A DNA stretch of 64,000 bases, taken from positions 6,624,001 to 6,688,000 of the forward strand of contig OY761556.1 in assembly GCA_963664705.1 (NCBI GenBank), in the 5' to 3' direction. Below are positions 5,362-18,319 of the stretch, in pieces. Made by a program: the position numbers and the translations under genes. The DNA comes from Acidobacteriota bacterium (GTDB lineage Bacteria > Acidobacteriota > UBA6911). Each line of letters begins with the position of its first letter. The stretch's first letter is position 1. The notes beneath the pieces are model-generated. The model was not told the origin of the DNA and ran no database searches. It saw only the letters and a program-made list of their open reading frames with translations.

Positions 5362-6810
5362 TTGAATTCGCGTCGCGGCGTTCGGATTATCGTGTCGTTG
5401 GCCGGGCTGGCCATGTTCACGCTGGCGGCGCATGCTTTTCCCGTGAACGCCACCACGGTCGGTTTTGCCTACCTGCTGCTCATCCTGATTGTTGCCAGCA
5501 CCTGGGGATTTATCGAGGCCTTTATTCTTTCAATCGCAGCGACCCTGGCGTTCAATCTCTTCTTTCTGCCTCCGGTCGGCACATTCAATATTGCCGAGGC
5601 GCAGAACTGGGTTGCGCTGTTCACTTTTCTCACAACCTCCCTGATTGCGAGTCGACTCTCGACCAAAGCAAAACGGCGCGCACTGGATGCCATCGAGCGT
5701 CAGCAGGATATTGAAAGGCTGTATTCCTTCAGCCGGGCAATCCTGCTGATCGACAGTTCCGAGTCTTTTCCTGCCCAGTTGATCCGGAAACTGGCGGATA
5801 TATTTCAGTTGAGCCTGGCCGTTCTTTACGAGCGGCGCACCGACACTTTCTACCGGGCCGGCCCGTCGGAAGCGGAAGGTGTTGAGAAACAGCTTCGGGA
5901 CACAGCCCTGAAGGGCACAACGTCCTCCGTGGAGGGATCCTGCACTTTTACCGCCATACGGCTTGGATCCGAGCCGATCGCCAGCCTCGCAATCCAGGGG
6001 AATCGTTTCACCGATTCGGTTCTTCAAGGCATCGGGAACCTGGTGGCCATTGGTTTGGAGAGAGCCCGGGCGCAGGATCTTGCCCACGAAATCGAGGCGA
6101 CGAGGCGAAGCGAGCACCTGCGCACAACGCTGATAGACGCAATGGCTCATGAATTCAAGACCCCACTTACCTCTATCAAAGCGACGACGACGGCACTCCT
6201 GGATGCTCCCGATCAGGCATTGGATGCCCGCGTGGAACTGCTGAAGATTGCCGATGAGGAGACGCAGCATTTAGGAAATTTGATTGATGACACGGTGGCG
6301 ATGGCACGCCTGGATGCCGGTCGCATCAAGGTCAATCCTGAAATTGTGGATATGTTCGAGGTCATCGAAGATATTTGCCTTTCACTCAAAGCGGAATTGC
6401 AGGGTCGACAGCTCGACGTGATCAGGAGCGCCGAGGTTTCAGCTGCGATCTTTGACCGGCGCCTGGTAAAGCTAGCAGTCAAGCAGTTGGTGGAGAATGC
6501 AATCAAATACTCTCCGGTCACGACACCGTTGAAGATTCGTATTGAAAGTGATGATAAACTGCTTGGTGTATGCGTTACGGATTACGGCAAAGGTATACCG
6601 GTGCAGGAGCAGCAACGTATCTTTGAGCGTTTTTATCGAAGTCCTTCGGTTCAGGACCAGATTCCCGGATCGGGATTGGGTTTGAGCATTGCTAAGAGTA
6701 TTGCGCGAGCCCATGGCGGGGATTTGACCGTTTCGAGCCGTCCGGGGGAAACCACTTTCCGGTTGGTTTTGCCTCTCGAGTACAGAGGAGAACATCGTGA
6801 GCGCGGGTAG
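5362..6810 (+). CDS. kdpD: KdpD membrane/kinase part only (4 TM DUF4118, GAF, HisKA, HATPase)
   Basis: FNLFFLPPVGTF TM signature, HEFKTPLTSI H-box, GSGLGLSI G-box. Lacks the N-terminal KdpD/USP domains, overlaps kdpE, and has GGAGGT before a TTG start. Confidence 0.88.
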   Translation: MNSRRGVRIIVSLAGLAMFTLAAHAFPVNATTVGFAYLLLILIVASTWGFIEAFILSIAATLAFNLFFLPPVGTFNIAEAQNWVALFTFLTTSLIASRLSTKAKRRALDAIERQQDIERLYSFSRAILLIDSSESFPAQLIRKLADIFQLSLAVLYERRTDTFYRAGPSEAEGVEKQLRDTALKGTTSSVEGSCTFTAIRLGSEPIASLAIQGNRFTDSVLQGIGNLVAIGLERARAQDLAHEIEATRRSEHLRTTLIDAMAHEFKTPLTSIKATTTALLDAPDQALDARVELLKIADEETQHLGNLIDDTVAMARLDAGRIKVNPEIVDMFEVIEDICLSLKAELQGRQLDVIRSAEVSAAIFDRRLVKLAVKQLVENAIKYSPVTTPLKIRIESDDKLLGVCVTDYGKGIPVQEQQRIFERFYRSPSVQDQIPGSGLGLSIAKSIARAHGGDLTVSSRPGETTFRLVLPLEYRGEHRERG

Positions 6811-7498
6811 AATTCTTGTGGTGGACGATGAGCCCCAGATCCGGCGCGTCATGCGCCCCACGCTGATTGCGGCAGGATATGAAATCGAGGATGCCAAGTC
6901 CGGAGAAGAGGGCATTGAGAAGGTAAACCAGTTTCGCCCGGACCTGGTGCTGCTTGACATCAACATGCCCGGGATGGGCGGGTTGGCCGCCTGCAAGCTG
7001 ATCCGGATGGCGGATAAAAATATCGCCATCATCATTCTTACCGTTCGCGACTCGGAAGCGGATAAAGTAGCCGCGCTGGATGCCGGGGCAGACGATTTTG
7101 TCACAAAGCCCTTCAGTACGCCGGAATTGCTGGCGCGAATCCGCGCGGCGCTGCGCCGGGTACCGGCGCTTCAATCAAATCCGGACCGGATCCAAGTCGG
7201 CGCTCTATCGATTGACTTTGCTTTGCGCACCGTAGCCAATGGCGGCGAGCCCATACACTTGACTCCCAAGGAACTGGATTTGCTGCGGTATCTGACCCAG
7301 CACTGCAACCAGGTTGTGTCTCACCGGGAACTGTTGCAGGCTGTATGGGGCGCGGATTACGGGCGCGAGGTAGATTATCTTCGGGTGTTCATCAAGAATC
7401 TGAGAAAGAAAATTGAAGCGAACCCGGATGCCCCGGAATACATTACCACCGAGCCGTGGGTGGGGTACCGCTTCAACGGCACGCCCGAGCCTTTATAG
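6797..7498 (+). CDS. kdpE: OmpR-family response regulator KdpE
   Basis: Receiver plus winged helix; motifs DKVAALDAGADDFVTKPF, YLRVFIKNLRKKIE, TEPWVGYRF. Lies in the kdp locus. Confidence 0.92.
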   Translation: MSAGRILVVDDEPQIRRVMRPTLIAAGYEIEDAKSGEEGIEKVNQFRPDLVLLDINMPGMGGLAACKLIRMADKNIAIIILTVRDSEADKVAALDAGADDFVTKPFSTPELLARIRAALRRVPALQSNPDRIQVGALSIDFALRTVANGGEPIHLTPKELDLLRYLTQHCNQVVSHRELLQAVWGADYGREVDYLRVFIKNLRKKIEANPDAPEYITTEPWVGYRFNGTPEPL

Positions 7499-7568
7499 AA
7501 TTTTTATAAATCCTCCATAACTTCTTCAGGGTTCCTCTACGCCTTCTTCAGGCCGCGCGTCCTATGCT
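7491..7568 (+). promoter_or_regulatory. Putative KdpE-binding direct repeats and -10 box of the kdp operon
   Basis: TTTATA at 7492 and 7503 (11-bp period, like the E. coli KdpE box), degenerate copies downstream, TATGCT at 7563-7568. Confidence 0.65.
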
Positions 7569-7587
7569 ACTCACGGAGCGTGCGACC

Positions 7588-8049
7588 ATGTCGACAACAA
7601 CAGCTTTTGGAATTTATGCAGACAGCGGGATTGATGAGTCTCTTCCAGCGCCCGCCATTTTGAATATCGGTCTGACCGTATTCGTGCTGTTTACATCCAT
7701 AGACGAGACGCTGAAAGCACTGCGAAGAGCGCAACAGATTGCGAGGCCGGTAGGCGCCCACATCGTTGTAGTGGCGGCACCGGTGATTCCTCACCCGCTG
7801 CAACTTGATCAGCCGCCGGTGTCTTTCGACTTTCTGATCAAGGAATTTGAGGAAAAGGCCGGCGGACATTTGGACAACATACGAATTGCAGTCTATCTGT
7901 GCCGCGATCAAGAGGAAGCACTAAAGCGTGTTTTGAACATCCATTGCCCTGTGGTTATCGGGATCAGTAAGCGTTGGCTCCCAACCAGGGAGGAACGATT
8001 GGCGAAAAGGCTGCTTCGCATCGGGTACGACGTTATCACGGTTTCCTAG
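7588..8049 (+). CDS. Hypothetical protein, probable USP-like fold, first gene of the kdp operon
   Basis: GGAG RBS; alternating beta/alpha pattern (VFVLFTS..TLKALRRAQQIA..IVVV). Fold is inference. Confidence 0.65.
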   Translation: MSTTTAFGIYADSGIDESLPAPAILNIGLTVFVLFTSIDETLKALRRAQQIARPVGAHIVVVAAPVIPHPLQLDQPPVSFDFLIKEFEEKAGGHLDNIRIAVYLCRDQEEALKRVLNIHCPVVIGISKRWLPTREERLAKRLLRIGYDVITVS

Positions 8050-8058
8050 GAGGATCCC

Positions 8059-8142
8059 ATGCTGGACCTGTTCTATCTCGCCGTTGCCGCATGTGTCCTC
8101 GCTGTTTTCTGGGGATTCGCCATTATTTGCGACAGGCTTTAG
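8059..8142 (+). CDS. 27-aa membrane peptide upstream of kdpF (MLDLFYLAVAACVLAVFWGFAIICDRL)
   Basis: AGGAGG RBS, single hydrophobic helix. Absent from the ORF track because of its length. Confidence 0.7.
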   Translation: MLDLFYLAVAACVLAVFWGFAIICDRL

Positions 8143-8152
8143 GGAGAAGTAA

Positions 8153-8236
8153 ATGGATTACATCATTGCGGGGCTTACATCGGCGGCTCTCTTTGTTTAC
8201 CTGGTATATGCGCTTTTGAAACCGGAGCGTTTTTAG
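8153..8236 (+). CDS. kdpF: K+-transporting ATPase subunit F (MDYIIAGLTSAALFVYLVYALLKPERF)
   Basis: YLVYALLxPERF KdpF signature, GGAG RBS, directly before kdpA. Confidence 0.92.
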   Translation: MDYIIAGLTSAALFVYLVYALLKPERF

Positions 8237-8245
8237 GAATCAATC

Positions 8246-10012
8246 ATGACAAGACAGGGTGTTCTGCAGATTGCCGTCTATTTTGTTGTGTTGCTCGTAT
8301 TGACGAAACCACTCGGGGCATTCATGGCCAATGTATATGAAGGGAAGCGGACGTTCCTTCATCGCGTTTTCCGGCCATTGGAGCATTTCATTTATAGGCT
8401 CAGCGGCATTTGCGAGGAAACAGAACAGCGATGGATCCAGTATACCGCCTCGCTGCTGGCTTTCAGCCTGGTTTGCTTTGTCTTTACCTATCTCCTTCAG
8501 CGCCTTCAAGGTTTTCTGCCACTGAATCCGGCGGGGTTTGGTTCAAAGCAGGTTGCTCCTGATTTGGCCTTCAATACCGCAGTCAGCTTCATCACCAACA
8601 CTAACTGGCAATCTTATAGTGGCGAGACAACTCTGAGCTATTTCGTACAGATGGCCGCTTTAACGGTTCAGAACTTTGCCTCAGCGGCGGCGGGAATGTG
8701 TGTTGCCATCGCTTTGATTCGTGGCTTTGCCCGGAGGCAGGTGAGTACCATAGGCAATTTCTGGGTGGATCTTGTACGGAGCATTCTGTATATCCTTCTG
8801 CCTTTGTCTTTGATTGGGGCTCTCCTGCTTTGTTCTCAAGGCGTTATACAGAATTTCAGCCATTCTTCCGCGATAACAACACTTGAAGGGAGTAGCCAGA
8901 TCATAGCGCAGGGCCCGGTAGCTTCCCAGATTGCCATCAAACAATTGGGTACAAACGGGGGAGGTTTCTTTAATGTCAATTCTGCGCACCCATTCGAGAA
9001 CCCAACACCGATTTCCAACTTCCTGGAAATGCTGTTCATCCTTCTGATTCCGGCCGGGCTTGTCTACACGTTTGGGCGGATGGTGAAAGACACGCGCCAG
9101 GCATGGGCGGTGTTTGCCGCGATGAGCCTGCTTTTTCTGGCAGGCGTTTTTATCTGCTATCCCGCAGAACAGGCCGGCAATCCCAACCTTACAAAACTGG
9201 GTGTCCAGGGTGTCCCGTCCAATGCCCAATCCGGTGGCAATATGGAAGGTAAAGAGGTCCGCTTCGGCATTGCGCCGTCCGCGCTTTGGGCTGTGGCGAC
9301 CACCGATGCAAGCAATGGCAGTGTGAATAGCATGATGGACAGCTTTACTCCCATTGGCGGCCTGGTGGCGCTTTTCAATATTCAAACCGGCGAGGTCATT
9401 TTCGGAGGAGTCGGATCCGGCCTCTACGGGATGCTGCTGTTTGCCATTATCGCAGTCTTCATAGCGGGTTTGATGGTGGGACGAACTCCGGAGTATCTCG
9501 GCAAGAAGATCGAGGGAAAGGAAGTGAAGATGGCAATGCTGGCGCTGATCGCCTGTGCGGCTTCCATCCTGATTTTCACTGCAATCAGTACCCATCTCCA
9601 CTTTGCCAAGGGGGGGTACTGGAATCCTCCCGGTGCGACTGCAGCCAATATAGCCAATAGCGGGCCGCATGGGCTTTCGGAAATTCTATACGCCTATTCA
9701 AGCGGTACGGGAAACAACGGCAGCGCCTTTGCCGGGCTAAATGCCAACACGCCCTGGTACAACTTGACCATTGGGCTGGCAATGCTGATTGGGCGTTTTC
9801 TTATCATCATTCCAATGCTTGCCGTGGCGGGGAGTCTGGCACTGAAAAGCCCTGTGCCGGTGACCAGCGGGACGCTACCGACGCATGGTCCTCTATTTGT
9901 CGGGCTGCTTGCCGGGACGGTGATTATAGTGGGCGCCCTTACCTATTTCCCCGCACTTTCATTAACTCCCATTGTCGAACATTTTCTCATGAGCAGCGGC
10001 CGGATGTTTTAA
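8246..10012 (+). CDS. kdpA: K+-transporting ATPase subunit A
   Basis: Motifs [33 protein letters not shown]. Confidence 0.97.
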
Positions 10013-10034
10013 CCGACGCGCAAGAGGAGGATTC

Positions 10035-12164
<2,130 letters not shown>

Positions 12165-12172
12165 GGAGGAAT

Positions 12173-12781
12173 ATGCTGAGACAGATAGTGCCCGCGTTGC
12201 GCATCACCATGGTTCTGACCGTTCTTACCGGTTTGCTGTATCCCGGCATTGTTACCGGCCTTTGCCAGTTGTTGTTTCCGCATCAGGCCAATGGTAGTCC
12301 GGTCGTGGGAAACGGCCGCGTTGTCGGCTCTGACCTCATTGGTCAAAATTTCCGCAGTCCCGAGTACTTTCATCCACGCCCTTCTGCCGCTGGTACCGAA
12401 GGCTATGATGCTTCTTCGTCCGGAGCCTCGAACCTGGGGCCTACCAGCAAGGCTCTGATGGATAGAGTGCAGGCGGATATAGCGAAATTCCGTCTCGAGA
12501 ACCCCGATTATCATGGCCTTATCCCCGCCGATATTGTGACGGCGTCCGGAAGTGGGTTGGATCCACACATCAGCCCAGCCGCCGCGCAGGCCCAGGCCGC
12601 GCGTGTTGCAATGGCGAGAAAGATACCGGTTCCTGAGGTACGGCATTTGATAGATCTAAACAGGGAAAAGCCCTCGCTTGGATTCCTTGGCGACGCACGG
12701 GTGAATGTATTGCGATTGAATCTGGCACTGGATCACCTGCAGTCATCGATTCTTCGAGAGCAAAGACTGAGACGGCCATGA
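12173..12781 (+). CDS. kdpC: K+-transporting ATPase subunit C
   Basis: YFHPRPSA, SGASNLGP, TASGSGLDPHIS; AGGAGG RBS before ATG 12173. Confidence 0.96.
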   Translation: MLRQIVPALRITMVLTVLTGLLYPGIVTGLCQLLFPHQANGSPVVGNGRVVGSDLIGQNFRSPEYFHPRPSAAGTEGYDASSSGASNLGPTSKALMDRVQADIAKFRLENPDYHGLIPADIVTASGSGLDPHISPAAAQAQAARVAMARKIPVPEVRHLIDLNREKPSLGFLGDARVNVLRLNLALDHLQSSILREQRLRRP

Positions 12782-13860
12782 ACCACGAAATGCGACGCAA
12801 GACGCCGGAGGAGCTGCTGCTGGAGCTTCATGAGGAAGAGATGGTTTCCAAAGGCCATCTGAAGATTTTTCTTGGCTATGCATCCGGCGTTGGAAAATCG
12901 TTTCGAATGCTTGATGAAGCGAGACGACGCAAAGACAGGGGCCAGGATATCATCGTCGGTGCCGTTCAACCTGGGGTTGCCGAGGATGTCCAGCGGCTGC
13001 TGGATGGACTCGAACTTGTACCATTGCGACAATACGCCCAGGGCAGTGGTCTGGATGTCCCCGCAATATTGTGGCGTAAACCGGAGGTGTGCGTTATCGA
13101 TGGCCTGGCCTTTACCAATCCACCCGGTGCCCGGAATAAAACACGCTGGCAGGATGTTCAGGATCTGGTGAAAGCCGGGATAAAGGTCATTGGATCGATC
13201 AATATTCAGTATATTGAGGAACTGCGGGAAGAGGTGGAGGCCATTACCGGCAAGCATGTGATCGATACGGTACCGACACGATTCATTCTTGGGGCGGATG
13301 AAATTGAAATCGTGGATGCTCCGCCTGAAGAACCAATGGAGCGATCTCCCGAGCAGCAGCTGGATCTTAATAAACGCCAGGAGCGCTATTGCGCATTGCG
13401 GGAGAGGACCCTCGTGCTTGCGGCCGATGTGGTGGATCATCAGCTGAACGGCTATCTGGAAAGACACGGAATCAGACAGAGCTTTGGTGCCCAGGAGCGT
13501 ATTCTTGTATGCATAACGCCTCGTGCAAATGCACAGGAAATGATCCGAGTCGCTCGAGCTATTGCTGACCGGTTTCATGCCGAGATGATGGTTGCCTATG
13601 TCCGGCAACCCGATTTATCACCTGCGGACAGTATCCTGCTTGAGAATAGGCTTGAAGAGGCCCGCTCCATGAGAGCGCAGATTGAAATTTTGGATGGCGA
13701 TGATCCCGTGAAGACCATTCTTGATTTTGCGCAGGCCAGGGGAGTAACGCAGCTCTTTATCGGTCATACTCAGACCGTGAGGAAGTGGCCGTGGAGTGAC
13801 CCGGTTGAAAAGCTGATCATCGGAGCGCGCGGGATGGATGTGCGCATTTTTCCGCAATAA
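12778..13860 (+). CDS. Stand-alone KdpD N-terminal domain + USP protein (copy 1)
   Basis: Walker A GYASGVGKS, TRWQDVQDL, LRERTL, C-terminal USP domain; no TM or HK domain. Confidence 0.88.
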   Translation: MNHEMRRKTPEELLLELHEEEMVSKGHLKIFLGYASGVGKSFRMLDEARRRKDRGQDIIVGAVQPGVAEDVQRLLDGLELVPLRQYAQGSGLDVPAILWRKPEVCVIDGLAFTNPPGARNKTRWQDVQDLVKAGIKVIGSINIQYIEELREEVEAITGKHVIDTVPTRFILGADEIEIVDAPPEEPMERSPEQQLDLNKRQERYCALRERTLVLAADVVDHQLNGYLERHGIRQSFGAQERILVCITPRANAQEMIRVARAIADRFHAEMMVAYVRQPDLSPADSILLENRLEEARSMRAQIEILDGDDPVKTILDFAQARGVTQLFIGHTQTVRKWPWSDPVEKLIIGARGMDVRIFPQ

Positions 13861-13870
13861 AGAGACGATC

Positions 13871-14968
13871 ATGATCGGAGCTGAGCGCGGAAAACTGAAG
13901 CTGTTCATGGGGTATGCCGCGGGCGTCGGCAAGACCTGCCATATGCTCGAAGAAGGACAGGCGCTCAAAACTCGCGGGATCGATATCGTCATTGGTTACT
14001 TCGAGCCTCATGGCAGGAAAGATACGATTGCCAGGACGGAGGGGTTGGAGTTTGTTCCGAGGATGAAGGTGGCCTATCGCGGCTCGGTTTTCGAGGAGAT
14101 GGATGCGGATGCCATTCTTGCCAGGAATCCCCGCGTCTGCCTCGTCGATGAGTTTGCGCATACGAACGTCCCTGGATCTCCCCGTATCAAGCGCTGGGAG
14201 GATGTGGAGTTGCTGCTGACGGCAGGGATCGATGTGCTGACGACCATGAATGTCCAGCATCTCGAGAGTCTCAATGATCAGGTTCGGCAGATTACAGGTA
14301 TCCAGGTGCGCGAGACAATTCCGGATTGGGTTGTGCAGCGGGCAGTCGAGGTTGTCGTAGTCGACCTGTCCCCGCGCGCGCTGCTTCATCGGCTGGAGCG
14401 CGGTGTTATCTATGATCGAGAGAAAGTGGATCTTGCGCTGCAGAATTTCTTCAGGGAATCAACCCTGGTGGCCTTGCGTGAGCTTGCGCTGCGCGAGACT
14501 GCTCACGAAATCGAATATCGGGTAATCAGAGAGGAGCCGCACTCCAGCGCGGATGCGACGGATCTGGTGTCGGGACGCAGGCATAAAATCCTGCTCGTTG
14601 CCACGGAGGATCCAAGGAGTGCGATGTTGATTCGACGCGCCCGACGCGTCAGTGATTATTTGGGAGCCGAGTGTTTTGCCGTGGCCGTCAAAGCGGAGGC
14701 GGGTCCAATGCCGGACGCAAGACGCCAGGCAATAGAAAAACACCTGGATTTAGCGCGCAATATGCAAATTGAAACGAGAGTCCTGGAAGGCCGGGATGAA
14801 GCTCAAACGCTGGTCGACTTTGCGCGCAGGAATCAGGTGACCCAGATATTCCTTGCCCGCCCACGAGAGAAGCCCTTCCTATGGCAGGAAGGGCTTCTGC
14901 AGAAAGTGGTTCGTCTTGCCAGGGATATGCAAATTGTTATTGTTTCGGACCGGGAGCCGGATATGTGA
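13871..14968 (+). CDS. Stand-alone KdpD N-terminal domain + USP protein (copy 2)
   Basis: GYAAGVGKT, VDEFAHTN, TTMNVQHLESLND, ALRELALR, C-terminal USP domain. Confidence 0.9.
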   Translation: MIGAERGKLKLFMGYAAGVGKTCHMLEEGQALKTRGIDIVIGYFEPHGRKDTIARTEGLEFVPRMKVAYRGSVFEEMDADAILARNPRVCLVDEFAHTNVPGSPRIKRWEDVELLLTAGIDVLTTMNVQHLESLNDQVRQITGIQVRETIPDWVVQRAVEVVVVDLSPRALLHRLERGVIYDREKVDLALQNFFRESTLVALRELALRETAHEIEYRVIREEPHSSADATDLVSGRRHKILLVATEDPRSAMLIRRARRVSDYLGAECFAVAVKAEAGPMPDARRQAIEKHLDLARNMQIETRVLEGRDEAQTLVDFARRNQVTQIFLARPREKPFLWQEGLLQKVVRLARDMQIVIVSDREPDM

Positions 14969-15012
14969 AATTCGTGGCGTAGGCTCAGACCTCTTGCGTC
15001 ACGAATTTCACA
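14964..15012. terminator. Inverted repeat between convergent genes (probable bidirectional terminator)
   Basis: TGTGAAATTCGTGGCG ... CGTCACGAATTTCACA, 16-bp arms with one G-U pair. Confidence 0.55.
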
Positions 15013-15031
15013 AGCCGCACAAACGATGCCG

Positions 15032-17290
15032 CTATTTATCCGATGCCTGCGGCAGGGCCCGATCCTGTTTTTTCGCCGAATGCGCCGAGGTTTCTTTGCC
15101 AAGTTCTTCGATAATAGCGGGGGCCTCGGCGGTCCCGAGCGATGACTGCAGCCTCCTCAACGCGATCCGGACAACATCCCGGTGATGCAGTTCGTGGCCA
15201 AGCCCGCGCTTTGTAAGATCGAGCCACAAGTCGTGCAGCAGTTCCATGTCCTCGGGCCAGAGCCTGGGCGGATGCGGGCCGAGGTTGAAGAACACCTGTT
15301 TGCCGGTTTGCTCGTCGAGGATTTCCAGCGAGAGCTGAGGCCGCGGAGGCGGCAGTTTTTCCCAGGCGTCGCCAAATGCTTTTGCCTGTTCCGCCGGCGT
15401 CATTTTTGCCGATAGTCCCATTACCACGAGAGCGGACTTAAGCCGCTGCGCAACCTCTACAATGGCACGGTTATAGTCTCTGCCGGGGACTACAAGAAGC
15501 TCCACATGTTTACCGGCCTTTTCCGCAACCGATACCACTCTCGTGAAGAGCTGGGCAACCTTGTCAGTGAAGATCTGATCCGTATCGAGAGCAAACCCGC
15601 CGCTGCCGTGTCCGGAAGTGCGCTTGACGGTCAAAGCGACAATGTCCAGCTTTCGGGTGTCGACTCTATCGAGCACCCTCGCCAGATGCCTGAGTTCATA
15701 GGGATTCCGGGCGGCAACCAGAACATTGCCCGGACGCACCTTGATGGATTGATGCGAAAGCATTTCCTGGTTTACGAGCCGGAATTTTTCATGTTCATCC
15801 GAGTGGGCTTTCTTTTTGCGGTTGTAGCGCTCCGACAGGGTAAAAATCATGAAGATGGTGATTGTAAATATGAATCCCCATACGGTTGCCACCTTCTTGG
15901 TAAAGAGGTTGACCACCGCAATTGTGAAAAGAGCCAGCGTAATCAATGCCAGGCCCAGGGGGAATTCTTTTCCTGCAATCCGGAAATTCAGCGGAACTTT
16001 CCACTCCGGTTCTTCCGGCTGCTTGTACCGGAGCACCAGGACCGATAGTCCCTGCATGGCAAAACTCCAGACGATTCCGAAAGCATAGGCATCGCCAAGG
16101 AGCTGTATGTTTCCACGCGTCAGGATAATGGTGACGATCTGCAGGGCTACGATCATCGTTATGAGATTAACCGTTGTCCCGTATTTTTTATGCGGATTCC
16201 GAAACCAGTCTGGAAGCACGCCGTCTTCCGCCACACGGTTCAGCACGCCATTGGATCCGACGATGGCTGTATTCACGGCTCCCGATAGTAGAATGGTGCC
16301 AACCACGACCACAAAGGCATGGAATAGAAGTCGCAGCGGGAGCGGACCGACGACGTTCATGGCCAATCCACCGATCAGGTTGTCGATATAAAGGTGCACT
16401 CTCTCGTTGTCCGGGATGATCATGACGGCGAAGAAGGAAACGAGGGATGTGAACACCAGGCTATAGACAAAAATAATGAAGCCGGCGCGTTTGAGATTCT
16501 TGAGCTTGGGCGAGGCAATTTCACGATTCACCTGGGCCAGGCTTTCTTCACCACTCATGGCCAGTACGGAATGGCCCAAACCGATCAGGATGGCAATCAC
16601 GCTCACCTGGGTCCATGCCGATCCCTTCAACCAGCCTACGGCCTCGTCGGTAAAATGGATGTTCTCGATGGTTGGAAATGGCACGGGATTGAATCCGCGC
16701 TGCAGGACCGTAATGACACACCAGACGATCAGTACCACGACCATGACGGTCGTCAACTGCATAATTCGCAGCGCCTTCTGACTGGATTCATGCATCCCGA
16801 TGATGTTCTTGCGCCAGAAATAGAGGGTGACCAGAATCGTAAAAAACGCCGCGAAATAGGGTGGATTTACTTTGCTTCCGGGCGAATGCAGCAGATCGGA
16901 CGTTTCGTTGATCAGCCCCGCCAGGTAAAGCCCCGCGCTGACTCCGCTGATAGGGCCCGTCAGAATATAGTCGAACATCAGGGCTGATACGGAAAACTTC
17001 GCCAGCGTGCTGCCCAGCGCTTCGTGGACGACGCGATACACCCCGCCGCGAACGAACATGCTGCAGCTCTCAACATAGACAGCCCGGACTGCATAGGAGA
17101 ACAGCATGATTCCGAGGATGAACCACGGTGCCGACTTGCCAAGATATCCCTCGGCAATACCCCCTGCGTAATAGGCAGAGGAGCCCAAATCGCAGAGGAC
17201 AATGGCTGCCGCTCGCCAAAAAGAGATGAACGACAGCATGATGGTGGATGCTACAACCACTTTGTTTACAGAATCGTCTCGAGCTTTCAT
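15032..17290 (-). CDS. APC-family permease with C-terminal cytoplasmic domain (KimA/YdaO-like, probable K+ transporter)
   Basis: About 12 TM segments, DLGSSAYY in TM1, SGEESL in TM6, soluble C-terminal domain, adjacent to kdp. Confidence 0.8.
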   Translation of the reverse strand: MKARDDSVNKVVVASTIMLSFISFWRAAAIVLCDLGSSAYYAGGIAEGYLGKSAPWFILGIMLFSYAVRAVYVESCSMFVRGGVYRVVHEALGSTLAKFSVSALMFDYILTGPISGVSAGLYLAGLINETSDLLHSPGSKVNPPYFAAFFTILVTLYFWRKNIIGMHESSQKALRIMQLTTVMVVVLIVWCVITVLQRGFNPVPFPTIENIHFTDEAVGWLKGSAWTQVSVIAILIGLGHSVLAMSGEESLAQVNREIASPKLKNLKRAGFIIFVYSLVFTSLVSFFAVMIIPDNERVHLYIDNLIGGLAMNVVGPLPLRLLFHAFVVVVGTILLSGAVNTAIVGSNGVLNRVAEDGVLPDWFRNPHKKYGTTVNLITMIVALQIVTIILTRGNIQLLGDAYAFGIVWSFAMQGLSVLVLRYKQPEEPEWKVPLNFRIAGKEFPLGLALITLALFTIAVVNLFTKKVATVWGFIFTITIFMIFTLSERYNRKKKAHSDEHEKFRLVNQEMLSHQSIKVRPGNVLVAARNPYELRHLARVLDRVDTRKLDIVALTVKRTSGHGSGGFALDTDQIFTDKVAQLFTRVVSVAEKAGKHVELLVVPGRDYNRAIVEVAQRLKSALVVMGLSAKMTPAEQAKAFGDAWEKLPPPRPQLSLEILDEQTGKQVFFNLGPHPPRLWPEDMELLHDLWLDLTKRGLGHELHHRDVVRIALRRLQSSLGTAEAPAIIEELGKETSAHSAKKQDRALPQASDK

Positions 17291-17330
17291 TGTGTCATCA
17301 CGTCCTAAATGATTCGTATGCAAACGTAGG

Positions 17331-17387
17331 ATGATACCGCCGCGCAACGTGAAGAATTTGTGGATAATTTATAAAGATTTCATGAAG
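17331..17387 (-). promoter_or_regulatory. Putative KdpE box and -10 upstream of the APC permease
   Basis: Minus-strand 17348-17387 matches kdp promoter 7491-7530 at 31 of 40 positions; TATCAT at 17331-17336. Confidence 0.6.
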
Positions 17388-17515: not shown

Positions 17516-18319
17516 TCAGATGGGATGGGCGGCCAAAAGATGCCGGATCGCTTCCAGCACGCCTTCGCCGATGGCCATGGCCTTGTCCGAAATGTGCCGG
17601 CAGTCGTAACTGCTGTCCTGGGGTTCGATATCTCCGAGCTTTTCGCGCTCATTGATGGGAATCTCCCGGATAAGCCCTCGGAGCGTTCCATCCATGGCGG
17701 CGCGAACAGGAGTATCGTTTACATAAAGAACAACGTCTCCGGTTTTTACGGTATCTCCGATGGATAGCGCGTGGCGTACGGTGCCCGCATGAGGGGCACG
17801 AAGCACTCTCTCCCAGCTATAGCCCGATTTCACCGATGGCGTCCCTGTGAACGGCTCCGTTAGGCCTTCGTAGATGACTCGACCGAGATTGGGACCTCGA
17901 TTGCTTTCCACGACTGCATGAACGACATCCGGGGCAGAGAAGCCCGGACCGATTCCAATGACGGCGCGTGCTTCGTTTCGGAAGGATCCGAGGTTTCTTT
18001 TTGCCAGGATCGCATCAACGACAACATCCGGTTTTAGTTCAGCAATGATCTTCCATTCGGGATCGATCATCACGCCGATTTGCCTCCGGGTCCAGGCCTC
18101 CGCCAACCCAGCCCGGTCGTGAACCAGCGTTCCCAGTACTCCTTCAACTTCGACCTGCCGCTCGTAAATGGCTTCGCAAAACGAGGCCTGCCTGCGGACG
18201 CAGAGTGGTGCGGCGATCTCAATCATGCAGATGCGCGTCATCTCGGCCATAAAAAGGCGATGCGCAATGCCGGAAGCCATTTCCCCGGCTCCTTTGATGA
18301 CAATCGACACGTCCAACAC
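17516..18319 (-). CDS. yqeB: Selenium-dependent molybdenum hydroxylase accessory protein (YqeB/EF2563 family)
   Basis: IKGAGEMASGIAHRL, DAILAKRNLG, ERVLRAP, ISDKAMAIGEGVLEA. Confidence 0.88.
   Translation of the reverse strand: MLDVSIVIKGAGEMASGIAHRLFMAEMTRICMIEIAAPLCVRRQASFCEAIYERQVEVEGVLGTLVHDRAGLAEAWTRRQIGVMIDPEWKIIAELKPDVVVDAILAKRNLGSFRNEARAVIGIGPGFSAPDVVHAVVESNRGPNLGRVIYEGLTEPFTGTPSVKSGYSWERVLRAPHAGTVRHALSIGDTVKTGDVVLYVNDTPVRAAMDGTLRGLIREIPINEREKLGDIEPQDSSYDCRHISDKAMAIGEGVLEAIRHLLAAHPI

Follow-up and report, generated by a model that had tools for sequence, protein, structure and literature searches.

The N-terminal domain of KdpD phosphorylates Ser162 of KdpB (Silberberg et al. 2024, PMC11018627), and in the Escherichia coli protein the D109A and E110A substitutions abolish this activity, while the double substitution W39A/R190A nearly does so. 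In that article and its supplement, a split into a KdpD/Usp protein and a TM/GAF/DHpCA protein (TM, transmembrane) is the commonest Acidobacteriota form, occurring in 31 of 37 species; a further class, "KdpD domain, Usp domain x2", comprises 86 species, 80 of them Bacillota, some of its rows carrying the remark "First domain mutated Walker B", and a term search of the main text returned no discussion of this class. A short KdpD/Usp protein is under the control of cyclic diadenosine monophosphate (c-di-AMP) in Deinococcus geothermalis, and the USP domain of Staphylococcus aureus KdpD responds to it as well (PMC11018627, PMC8214093, PDB 7JI4); how the KdpD serine kinase is switched on is stated there to be open (PMC11018627). 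Here we analyze a kdp locus of an Acidobacteriota bacterium (assembly GCA_963664705.1, contig OY761556.1, positions 6,624,001 to 6,688,000; this whole stretch of 64,000 nucleotides is called the window), in which KdpD is spread over a membrane histidine kinase (HK) and two stand-alone KdpD(N)-USP proteins, D1 and D2. We favor, with a probability of about 0.6, the reading that D1 and D2 form a heterodimer in which D2 would be the KdpB kinase and D1 its regulatory partner. The separation of HK from serine kinase is already published; the new part is D1, a conserved family most of whose members lack the catalytic Glu, and no description of a two-gene D1/D2 pair was found in the openly accessible literature or in the part of the supplementary species table that was covered.

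As in the described split systems, the HK and the N-terminal module lie on separate chains and the module follows kdpC; the window has a separate HK with its phosphoaccepting His, a KdpE, and a KdpD/Usp gene after kdpC. It differs from those systems, as described, in having two KdpD/Usp genes, one of them without the catalytic Glu. The likeness to the x2 class, as the supplement describes it, is a first module with a mutated Walker B followed by a canonical second one, here distributed over two genes instead of one polypeptide, and the modules of that class group apart from D1 and D2. All domains of full-length E. coli KdpD are present over the three genes, but the kinase module is untethered from the K+-sensing TM/GAF region and a second, degenerate module has been added. 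The features on which the argument depends are as follows.

12778..13860, plus strand: D1, KdpD(N)-USP without the catalytic Glu (motifs GVGKS and IDGLAFTN)
13871..14968, plus strand: D2, KdpD(N)-USP with canonical Walker A and B (motifs GVGKT and VDEFAHTN)
12155..12781, plus strand: kdpC
10035..12164, plus strand: kdpB, with TGES at residues 180-183 (Ser183 corresponds to E. coli Ser162) and DKTGT at 334
5362..6810, plus strand: HK, the C-terminal half of KdpD, with TM region, inferred GAF, DHp with His263, and CA
6797..7498, plus strand: kdpE-type OmpR response regulator

This three-gene layout, with the HK upstream beside kdpE and D1 overlapping kdpC, had been described in the initial annotation together with the D1, D2 and KdpB motifs, and all of it is borne out. 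Its statement that the modules are "genetically uncoupled" from transcriptional sensing is overstated, as HK and kdpE belong to the same cluster and strand. The kdpC and D1 genes overlap by ATGA; the open reading frame (ORF) finder starts D2 at 13838, but the likelier ATG is at 13871, 10 nucleotides past the D1 stop (13858-13860), and the ATGA coupling and the 10-nucleotide gap suggest that kdpC, D1 and D2 are one operon; this spacing is also what suggests the co-induction with the pump that the initial annotation had proposed. D1 and D2 share 33% identity, and the whole genome has no other PF02702 match. The layout is not an assembly error, since relatives keep the two genes and contigs of two public runs, possibly the source of this very DNA, cover 12100-15100 without a difference.

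Residue numbering in what follows is that of the annotated E. coli KdpD record where so indicated. Two samples were used: a closest-relatives set of the best 80 of 592 confirmed genome loci, from which 78 D1 and 76 D2 sequences were aligned (a few of the D2 rows being damaged reads), and a Terriglobia set of 251 evenly drawn genomes, which shares five genomes with the first and in which D1-type and D2-type proteins were separated by clear score gaps and verified by sequence extraction.

The equivalents of E. coli KdpD G36/K37/T38, D109/E110 and R190 are all found in D2. Its Walker A (G-x5-GKT) comprises G25, K32 and T33 and its Walker B D104 and E105, this Glu being present in 69/69 Terriglobia relatives; H58, R60, R185 and the lid are retained as well. 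Within the adenine pair, R185 (the counterpart of R190) is kept, and Cys34 occupies the position of the adenine-contacting aromatic W39. On the target side, KdpB TGES is intact in 77 of the 77 related KdpB sequences that could be read. From these residues, D2 is predicted to act as a serine kinase and thereby to turn off the KdpFABC pump.

D1 presents a different picture. It keeps Walker A (G-x5-GK[T/S]: G33, K40, S41), with the Lys in 78/78 sequences, and the Walker B Asp (D108, E. coli D109), likewise in 78/78, but the Asp-Glu pair reads D108-G109, with Gly at the position of E. coli E110. That position holds 62 Gly, 3 Glu, 2 Ala, 2 Pro and 2 Ser among 71 Terriglobia D1, so that Glu is lost in 68 of them, and 67 Gly, 8 Glu, 2 Ala and 1 Gln among the 78 closest relatives. 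The E61/H63/R65 motif, R163 and D168 (E. coli numbering) are absent from the 78 D1. F42 and R189, which match the W39/R190 pair, are present, while the lid segment that follows (E. coli 191-200) is deleted; the lid motif occurs in 0/71 D1 versus 69/69 D2 of the Terriglobia set. Because K37 and D109 are kept and E110 and the lid are lost, D1 probably still binds a phosphate-bearing ligand without the base that activates the serine. Against NF038185, the family of KdpD-like non-kinase potassium sensors, D1 scores 221.7 bits and D2 340.8 bits, both under the curated cut-off of 550.

These losses could be read as the decay of a duplicate without function. D1, however, is a conserved family: its best 120 matches listed share 60-100% identity and are mostly ~360 residues long, 50 columns are invariant in 118 sequences, and the median ratio of nonsynonymous to synonymous change (dN/dS) is 0.13, against 0.10 for D2, as calculated from the 37 least-saturated of 3916 pairs (D1 proportion of synonymous differences under 0.55), the window's own comparisons being saturated. 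In trees of subsets (78 of 202 rows, and 79 chosen rows, the latter unrooted and from a quick search), D1 and D2 fall on opposite sides of a strongly supported branch and are subdivided in similar ways, and the well-supported D1 clade spans several Acidobacteriota groups. With D1 also kept where it is unlinked from D2, the selection and distribution data effectively refute a functionless duplicate.

A D1 that is itself active, as a further kinase or ATPase working on another substrate or through a rearranged site that its partner completes, is a very unlikely alternative. The invariant Walker A and D109 would fit, as would two substitutions that are themselves invariant in 78/78 sequences, E61 to Gln and S149 to Glu, and the Glu that is kept on some D1 branches; fused proteins whose halves lack complementary parts, described below, point the same way. 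The Glu, however, is essential in E. coli KdpD (PMC11018627) and absent from most D1, and D2 is complete by itself in sequence.

The two genes are found together with few exceptions. D2 lies directly 3' of D1 in 76 of the 80 closest-relative loci, the other four ending right after D1, and kdpABC genes are in view in 66. Either gene occurs in 72 of the 251 Terriglobia genomes and both in 69, the three exceptions being two genomes that lack a full D2 match and a third in which D2 is only partial; KdpA accompanies the pair in 69 of 71 genomes. Matches occur in 27 of the 137 genomes of the window's class, and 25 of the 27 have two or more. The broader phylum sample, whose tallies alone include the unpublished genome G024, has D1 in 5/401 genomes plus one broken locus, the rest carrying full-length or single short KdpD. 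This comparative evidence supports D1 as a conserved, selected and pseudokinase-like partner in the near-constant company of D2; an absence of purifying selection on copy 1, which the initial annotation had named as refuting its interpretation, is not what the data show. Some genomes (among others locus L131 and genomes G632, G556, G690, G696, G684 and G749) have the D1-D2 pair plus a separate, ordinary single KdpD/Usp, and in several of them the pair lies away from kdpABC.

Six Terriglobia genomes, in which D1 and D2 sit at different loci in several arrangements, bear on what D1 might do apart from D2. One account makes D1 a non-catalytic partner of the membrane HK, feeding ATP level or a USP ligand into transcription while D2 alone acts on the pump. 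D1 adjoins HK-kdpE in two of these genomes (L164, L166), but in three others (L159, L161, L163) it is D2 that does so; D1 is also absent from single-copy split systems, and, as a weak negative, the longer D1 matches listed include D1-D2 fusions and no D1-HK fusion. We regard this account as unlikely. According to another, each protein has its own action on KdpB: D1 would bind the A-domain as a non-catalytic competitor or reversible inhibitor, and D2 would phosphorylate it. The translational coupling of D1 to kdpC would suit such a role, as would its remaining with kdpABC in four of the six genomes (L158, L160, L162, L168). D1 has nevertheless lost E61/H63/R65, R163, D168 and the lid, which are invariant in active copies and plausible substrate contacts, and direct pairing is favored by the fusions and the USP-dimer model presented next, which makes separate action a rather improbable explanation.

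In all 76 informative loci of close relatives D1 and D2 are two genes. The initial annotation had held that a single fused ORF in close relatives would speak against its interpretation; the close relatives are indeed unfused, but the test points the wrong way, as the D1-D2 partnership is favored by the existence of rarer fused forms. In P0149, a clean D2-D1 fusion, the two halves fall within the D1 and D2 clades; P0154/P0155 form a fused family, on long branches, in which one half is sister to D1 and the other to D2; and P0180 and P0182 are by appearance further D1-like/D2-like fusions. In P0154, P0155 and P0157 the Walker B Glu persists in the D1-like half and is lost from the D2-like half, which retains the lid, an arrangement that could be either a composite site or double decay. 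Four other candidates (P0115, P0148, P0150, P0153) were rejected, the D1 or D2 match being lost at the junction in the manner of frameshift artefacts. Separately, loci L035, L036, L040, L046 and L092 have many frameshifts across their kdp genes, likely sequencing errors, and such loci can mimic fusions or pseudogenes.

A comparable asymmetry is seen in Bacillota. Among 80 metagenome loci, 50 full-length ORFs of the Bacillota-type tandem were recovered, 45 of them directly after kdpC, with one cluster named Gottfriedia solisilvae. The Glu is lost from the first module in 47 of 49 readable tandems and kept in the second in 49/49. These modules group together (support 90) in a branch apart from D1/D2 (support 99) in the unrooted tree, suggesting an independent duplication that likewise ended in Gly for Glu. 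Of 23 two-module proteins picked from a 50%-identity library, 18 have a single lid motif, 4 have two, and 1, which is truncated, has none; asymmetry is therefore the usual outcome of doubling. Loci L248, L256 and L257 are Bacillota-type loci with only a 380-residue KdpD-Usp ORF after kdpC and no tandem.

An AlphaFold model of one Bacillota tandem (53 sequences), which spans a disordered linker, reached a predicted template-modeling score (pTM) of 0.78. Taken together, its two USP domains match tandem-USP structures such as 3LOQ and UspE with Z of ~20-21 and a root-mean-square deviation of 2.9-4.0 Å over ~245 residues. The Bacillota tandem thus appears, in this model, to pack its modules through a USP dimer. 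D1 modeled alone gave a pTM of 0.48, with structure matches to 2R8R and 7JI4 only.

The USP domains of D1 and D2 have also diverged. According to Dutta et al. (2021, PMC8214093), the c-di-AMP pocket in the USP domain that S. aureus KdpD carries is formed by A242, S244, S246, N249, Y271 and G329. The D1 USP profile matches the c-di-AMP-bound S. aureus structure (7JI4) with an E of 1e-8, and C245, T247, R249, A252, Y274 and G329 align to its pocket; the conserved USP pocket of D1 comprises C245, T247, R249, Y274, Q277 and G329-H330-T331. The D2 pocket is degenerate, with V254, A283 and A340, has lost the β2 Tyr and the β4 Gly, and varies across 69 relatives. The genome of the window encodes a diadenylate cyclase (PF02457, E 3e-43). 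The likeness to the D. geothermalis and S. aureus proteins lies in the soluble kinase-USP architecture, the cyclase in the genome, and the small β1 residue, β2 Tyr and conserved β4 Gly (Gly329) kept by D1; here, though, pocket and catalytic residues are on different proteins.

Considering these residues, c-di-AMP may be the D1 ligand in this genome, though we are less certain of this than of the pairing itself. D1 reads C-x-T-P-R where the strict published motif is (A/G/C)-x-S-x-S-x2-N plus Y/F: C245 and Y274 fit, T247 is conservative, and R249 (for Ser246) and A252 (for Asn249) do not fit. With one weak match set aside, a cyclase match is present in only 36 of 71 genomes that carry the pair; c-di-AMP is therefore not a general input of D1, and cyclase-negative lineages keep D1 for something else. 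For the D1 motif, 35 cyclase-positive and 35 cyclase-negative genomes were compared. The D1 motif (T247, R/K249, G-H-S/T) is intact in 30/35 of the former versus 3/35 of the latter, a motif picked after 34 of the genomes had been viewed; in genomes fetched after the choice, the counts are 12/17 versus 1/14. The D1 positions most contrasting by cyclase status are 277, 249, 247 and 331, all in c-di-AMP-contacting loops of 7JI4, and the D2 USP exhibits no comparable contrast between the two groups of genomes. A kinship-controlled test of the association was not significant (3 independent pairs on well-supported branches, p 0.5-1). The link between cyclase and D1 motif is accordingly a lead and not a result.

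Convergent on D2 is a gene that brings in a further candidate partner of D1.

15032..17347, minus strand: APC-superfamily permease with a long cytoplasmic tail, distantly KimA-like

Profile comparison with a KimA orthologue gave a probability of 95% and covered D126, T130, E268 and Y421, so that the residues matching KimA D117, T121, E233 and Y377, whose roles are given in PMC6994465, are kept; D53/Y60 were matched to KimA D36/Y43 by eye only, and the permease sequence retrieved no transporter from the PDB. D1 might serve as an adaptor between D2 and a potassium transporter of the KimA-like kind, the transporter serving as co-sensor or second substrate. In-frame permease-D1 fusions of ~1090 residues form 23 protein clusters (P0123-P0145) and also occur at loci L099, L100 and L112, the kdp clusters of L040, L073 and L210 contain the permease, and it is convergent on D2 in L035 as in the window. 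The fusions, however, are closely similar, and those with names all belong to Candidatus Angelobacter, so that they probably represent one event; only 5 of 80 loci have the permease close to D1, and two further close paralogues (three in all) stand in unrelated contexts of the window's genome. As an explanation of D1 in general we consider the adaptor role improbable. The permease is probably an accessory confined to some lineages rather than an established part of the system, and as a lineage-specific addition it is compatible with the heterodimer reading.

The favored D1-D2 heterodimer could work as follows. An ancestral KdpD/Usp homodimer would have turned asymmetric after duplication, catalysis going to D2 and regulation to D1, which would become both dimer partner and signal sensor of D2. 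In this genome, c-di-AMP bound to the D1 USP at high K+ would stimulate D2 across a USP-USP interface, and D2 would phosphorylate KdpB and turn the KdpFABC pump off, while the separate membrane HK and KdpE would control transcription. A bolder form of the proposal, which we put forward tentatively and think less likely to hold, has an obligate pseudokinase-kinase heterodimer in which c-di-AMP would bind the dead subunit only, in a non-canonical T-P-R/G-H-S pocket, and switch the live one across the USP-USP interface; the asymmetry would have arisen at least twice, as two genes in Acidobacteriota and as a single chain in Bacillota, and D1 would in some lineages be wired to a KimA-like transporter supplying the potassium signal.

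Several observations weigh against the heterodimer, alongside the pocket, cyclase and kinship results above. The D1 family is not uniformly dead, with Glu retained in 8/78 and 3/71 sequences, including some early-branching D1. It is the D2-like half of P0154/P0155 that is without Glu. The Cys in the window's D2 takes the place of a residue that is aromatic in 67 of 69 relatives, and this may weaken the protein. Operon hitch-hiking explains much of the D1/D2 co-occurrence, and the tandem model, made without a control and for a protein that evolved separately, may reflect likeness to solved USP and KdpD dimers. The interpretation in the initial annotation, an active/pseudo-kinase heterodimer of the two paralogues, is on balance partly supported.

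The gene order of the cluster is HK–kdpE–orf161–27-residue ORF–kdpF–kdpA–kdpB–kdpC–D1–D2, followed by the convergent permease; orf161, the 27-residue ORF, the permease and the D2 Cys at the W39 position had been missed by the initial annotation. The remaining features are listed here.

7564..8049, plus strand: orf161, a small conserved protein with a homologue in 38/80 related loci
8059..8142, plus strand: 27-residue hydrophobic ORF directly 5' of kdpF, no Pfam match
8153..8236, plus strand: kdpF (PF09604, E 2e-11)
8246..10012, plus strand: kdpA

The HK matches DUF4118, HisKA and HATPase as well as positions 404-884 of the PRK10490 profile. Pfam gives no GAF domain at E<=0.01, and this domain is inferred from an alignment of the HK to residues 403-880 of E. 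coli KdpD, which make up its TM-GAF-DHpCA half. The orf161 protein has no Pfam or NCBIfam match; its Atlas neighbors are unnamed Acidobacteriota clusters, and a more distant set carries Usp on 15% of members, so that a stand-alone USP-like protein is possible, as a lead only. It also adjoins the APC permease in loci L171 and L210. The 27-residue ORF may encode an extra small membrane peptide or subunit. A promoter and terminator scan gave chance-level results only, and Rfam at gathering thresholds had no match in the window, so that no ydaO riboswitch turned up.

Some neighboring genes were noted in passing. At L043:1635-3002, L053:722-1831, L069:8672-9997 and L158:7766-9154, kdpC and D1 are separated by a gene for a BBP2 (PF07642) outer-membrane porin, and many other relatives have a porin-like gene there, judged by size and signal peptide; it is absent in the window. 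A class I methyltransferase gene (~225 residues) follows D2 at L052:8531-9208, the one locus scanned, with similar-looking ORFs 3' of D2 in L056, L070, L095, L096, L103 and L104. Unrelated to the kdp cluster, YqeB of selenium-dependent molybdenum cofactor biosynthesis (TIGR03309 above cut-off) is encoded at 17516-18319 on the minus strand.

Kinase/pseudokinase and half-active heterodimers are known in which an impaired paralogue is kept under selection beside an active one. D1 and D2 resemble these in combining an impaired and an active paralogue, here in a P-loop atypical serine kinase fold, and no characterized pseudokinase pair of the KdpD serine-kinase fold was found in the literature searched. 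The finding also corrects annotation: in the rows covered of the PMC11018627 supplement, Paludibaculum is listed with a D1-type protein only, scored "Walker AB: Yes", and Solibacter with a D2-type protein only, such that D1-type proteins are counted as functional kinases and such genomes as having one module. The locus offers a natural pair with catalysis and ligand pocket on different proteins, each of which can thus be mutated alone. Finally, the repeated occurrence of dead and live pairs suggests that one active site per dimer suffices, which may hold for homodimeric KdpD too.

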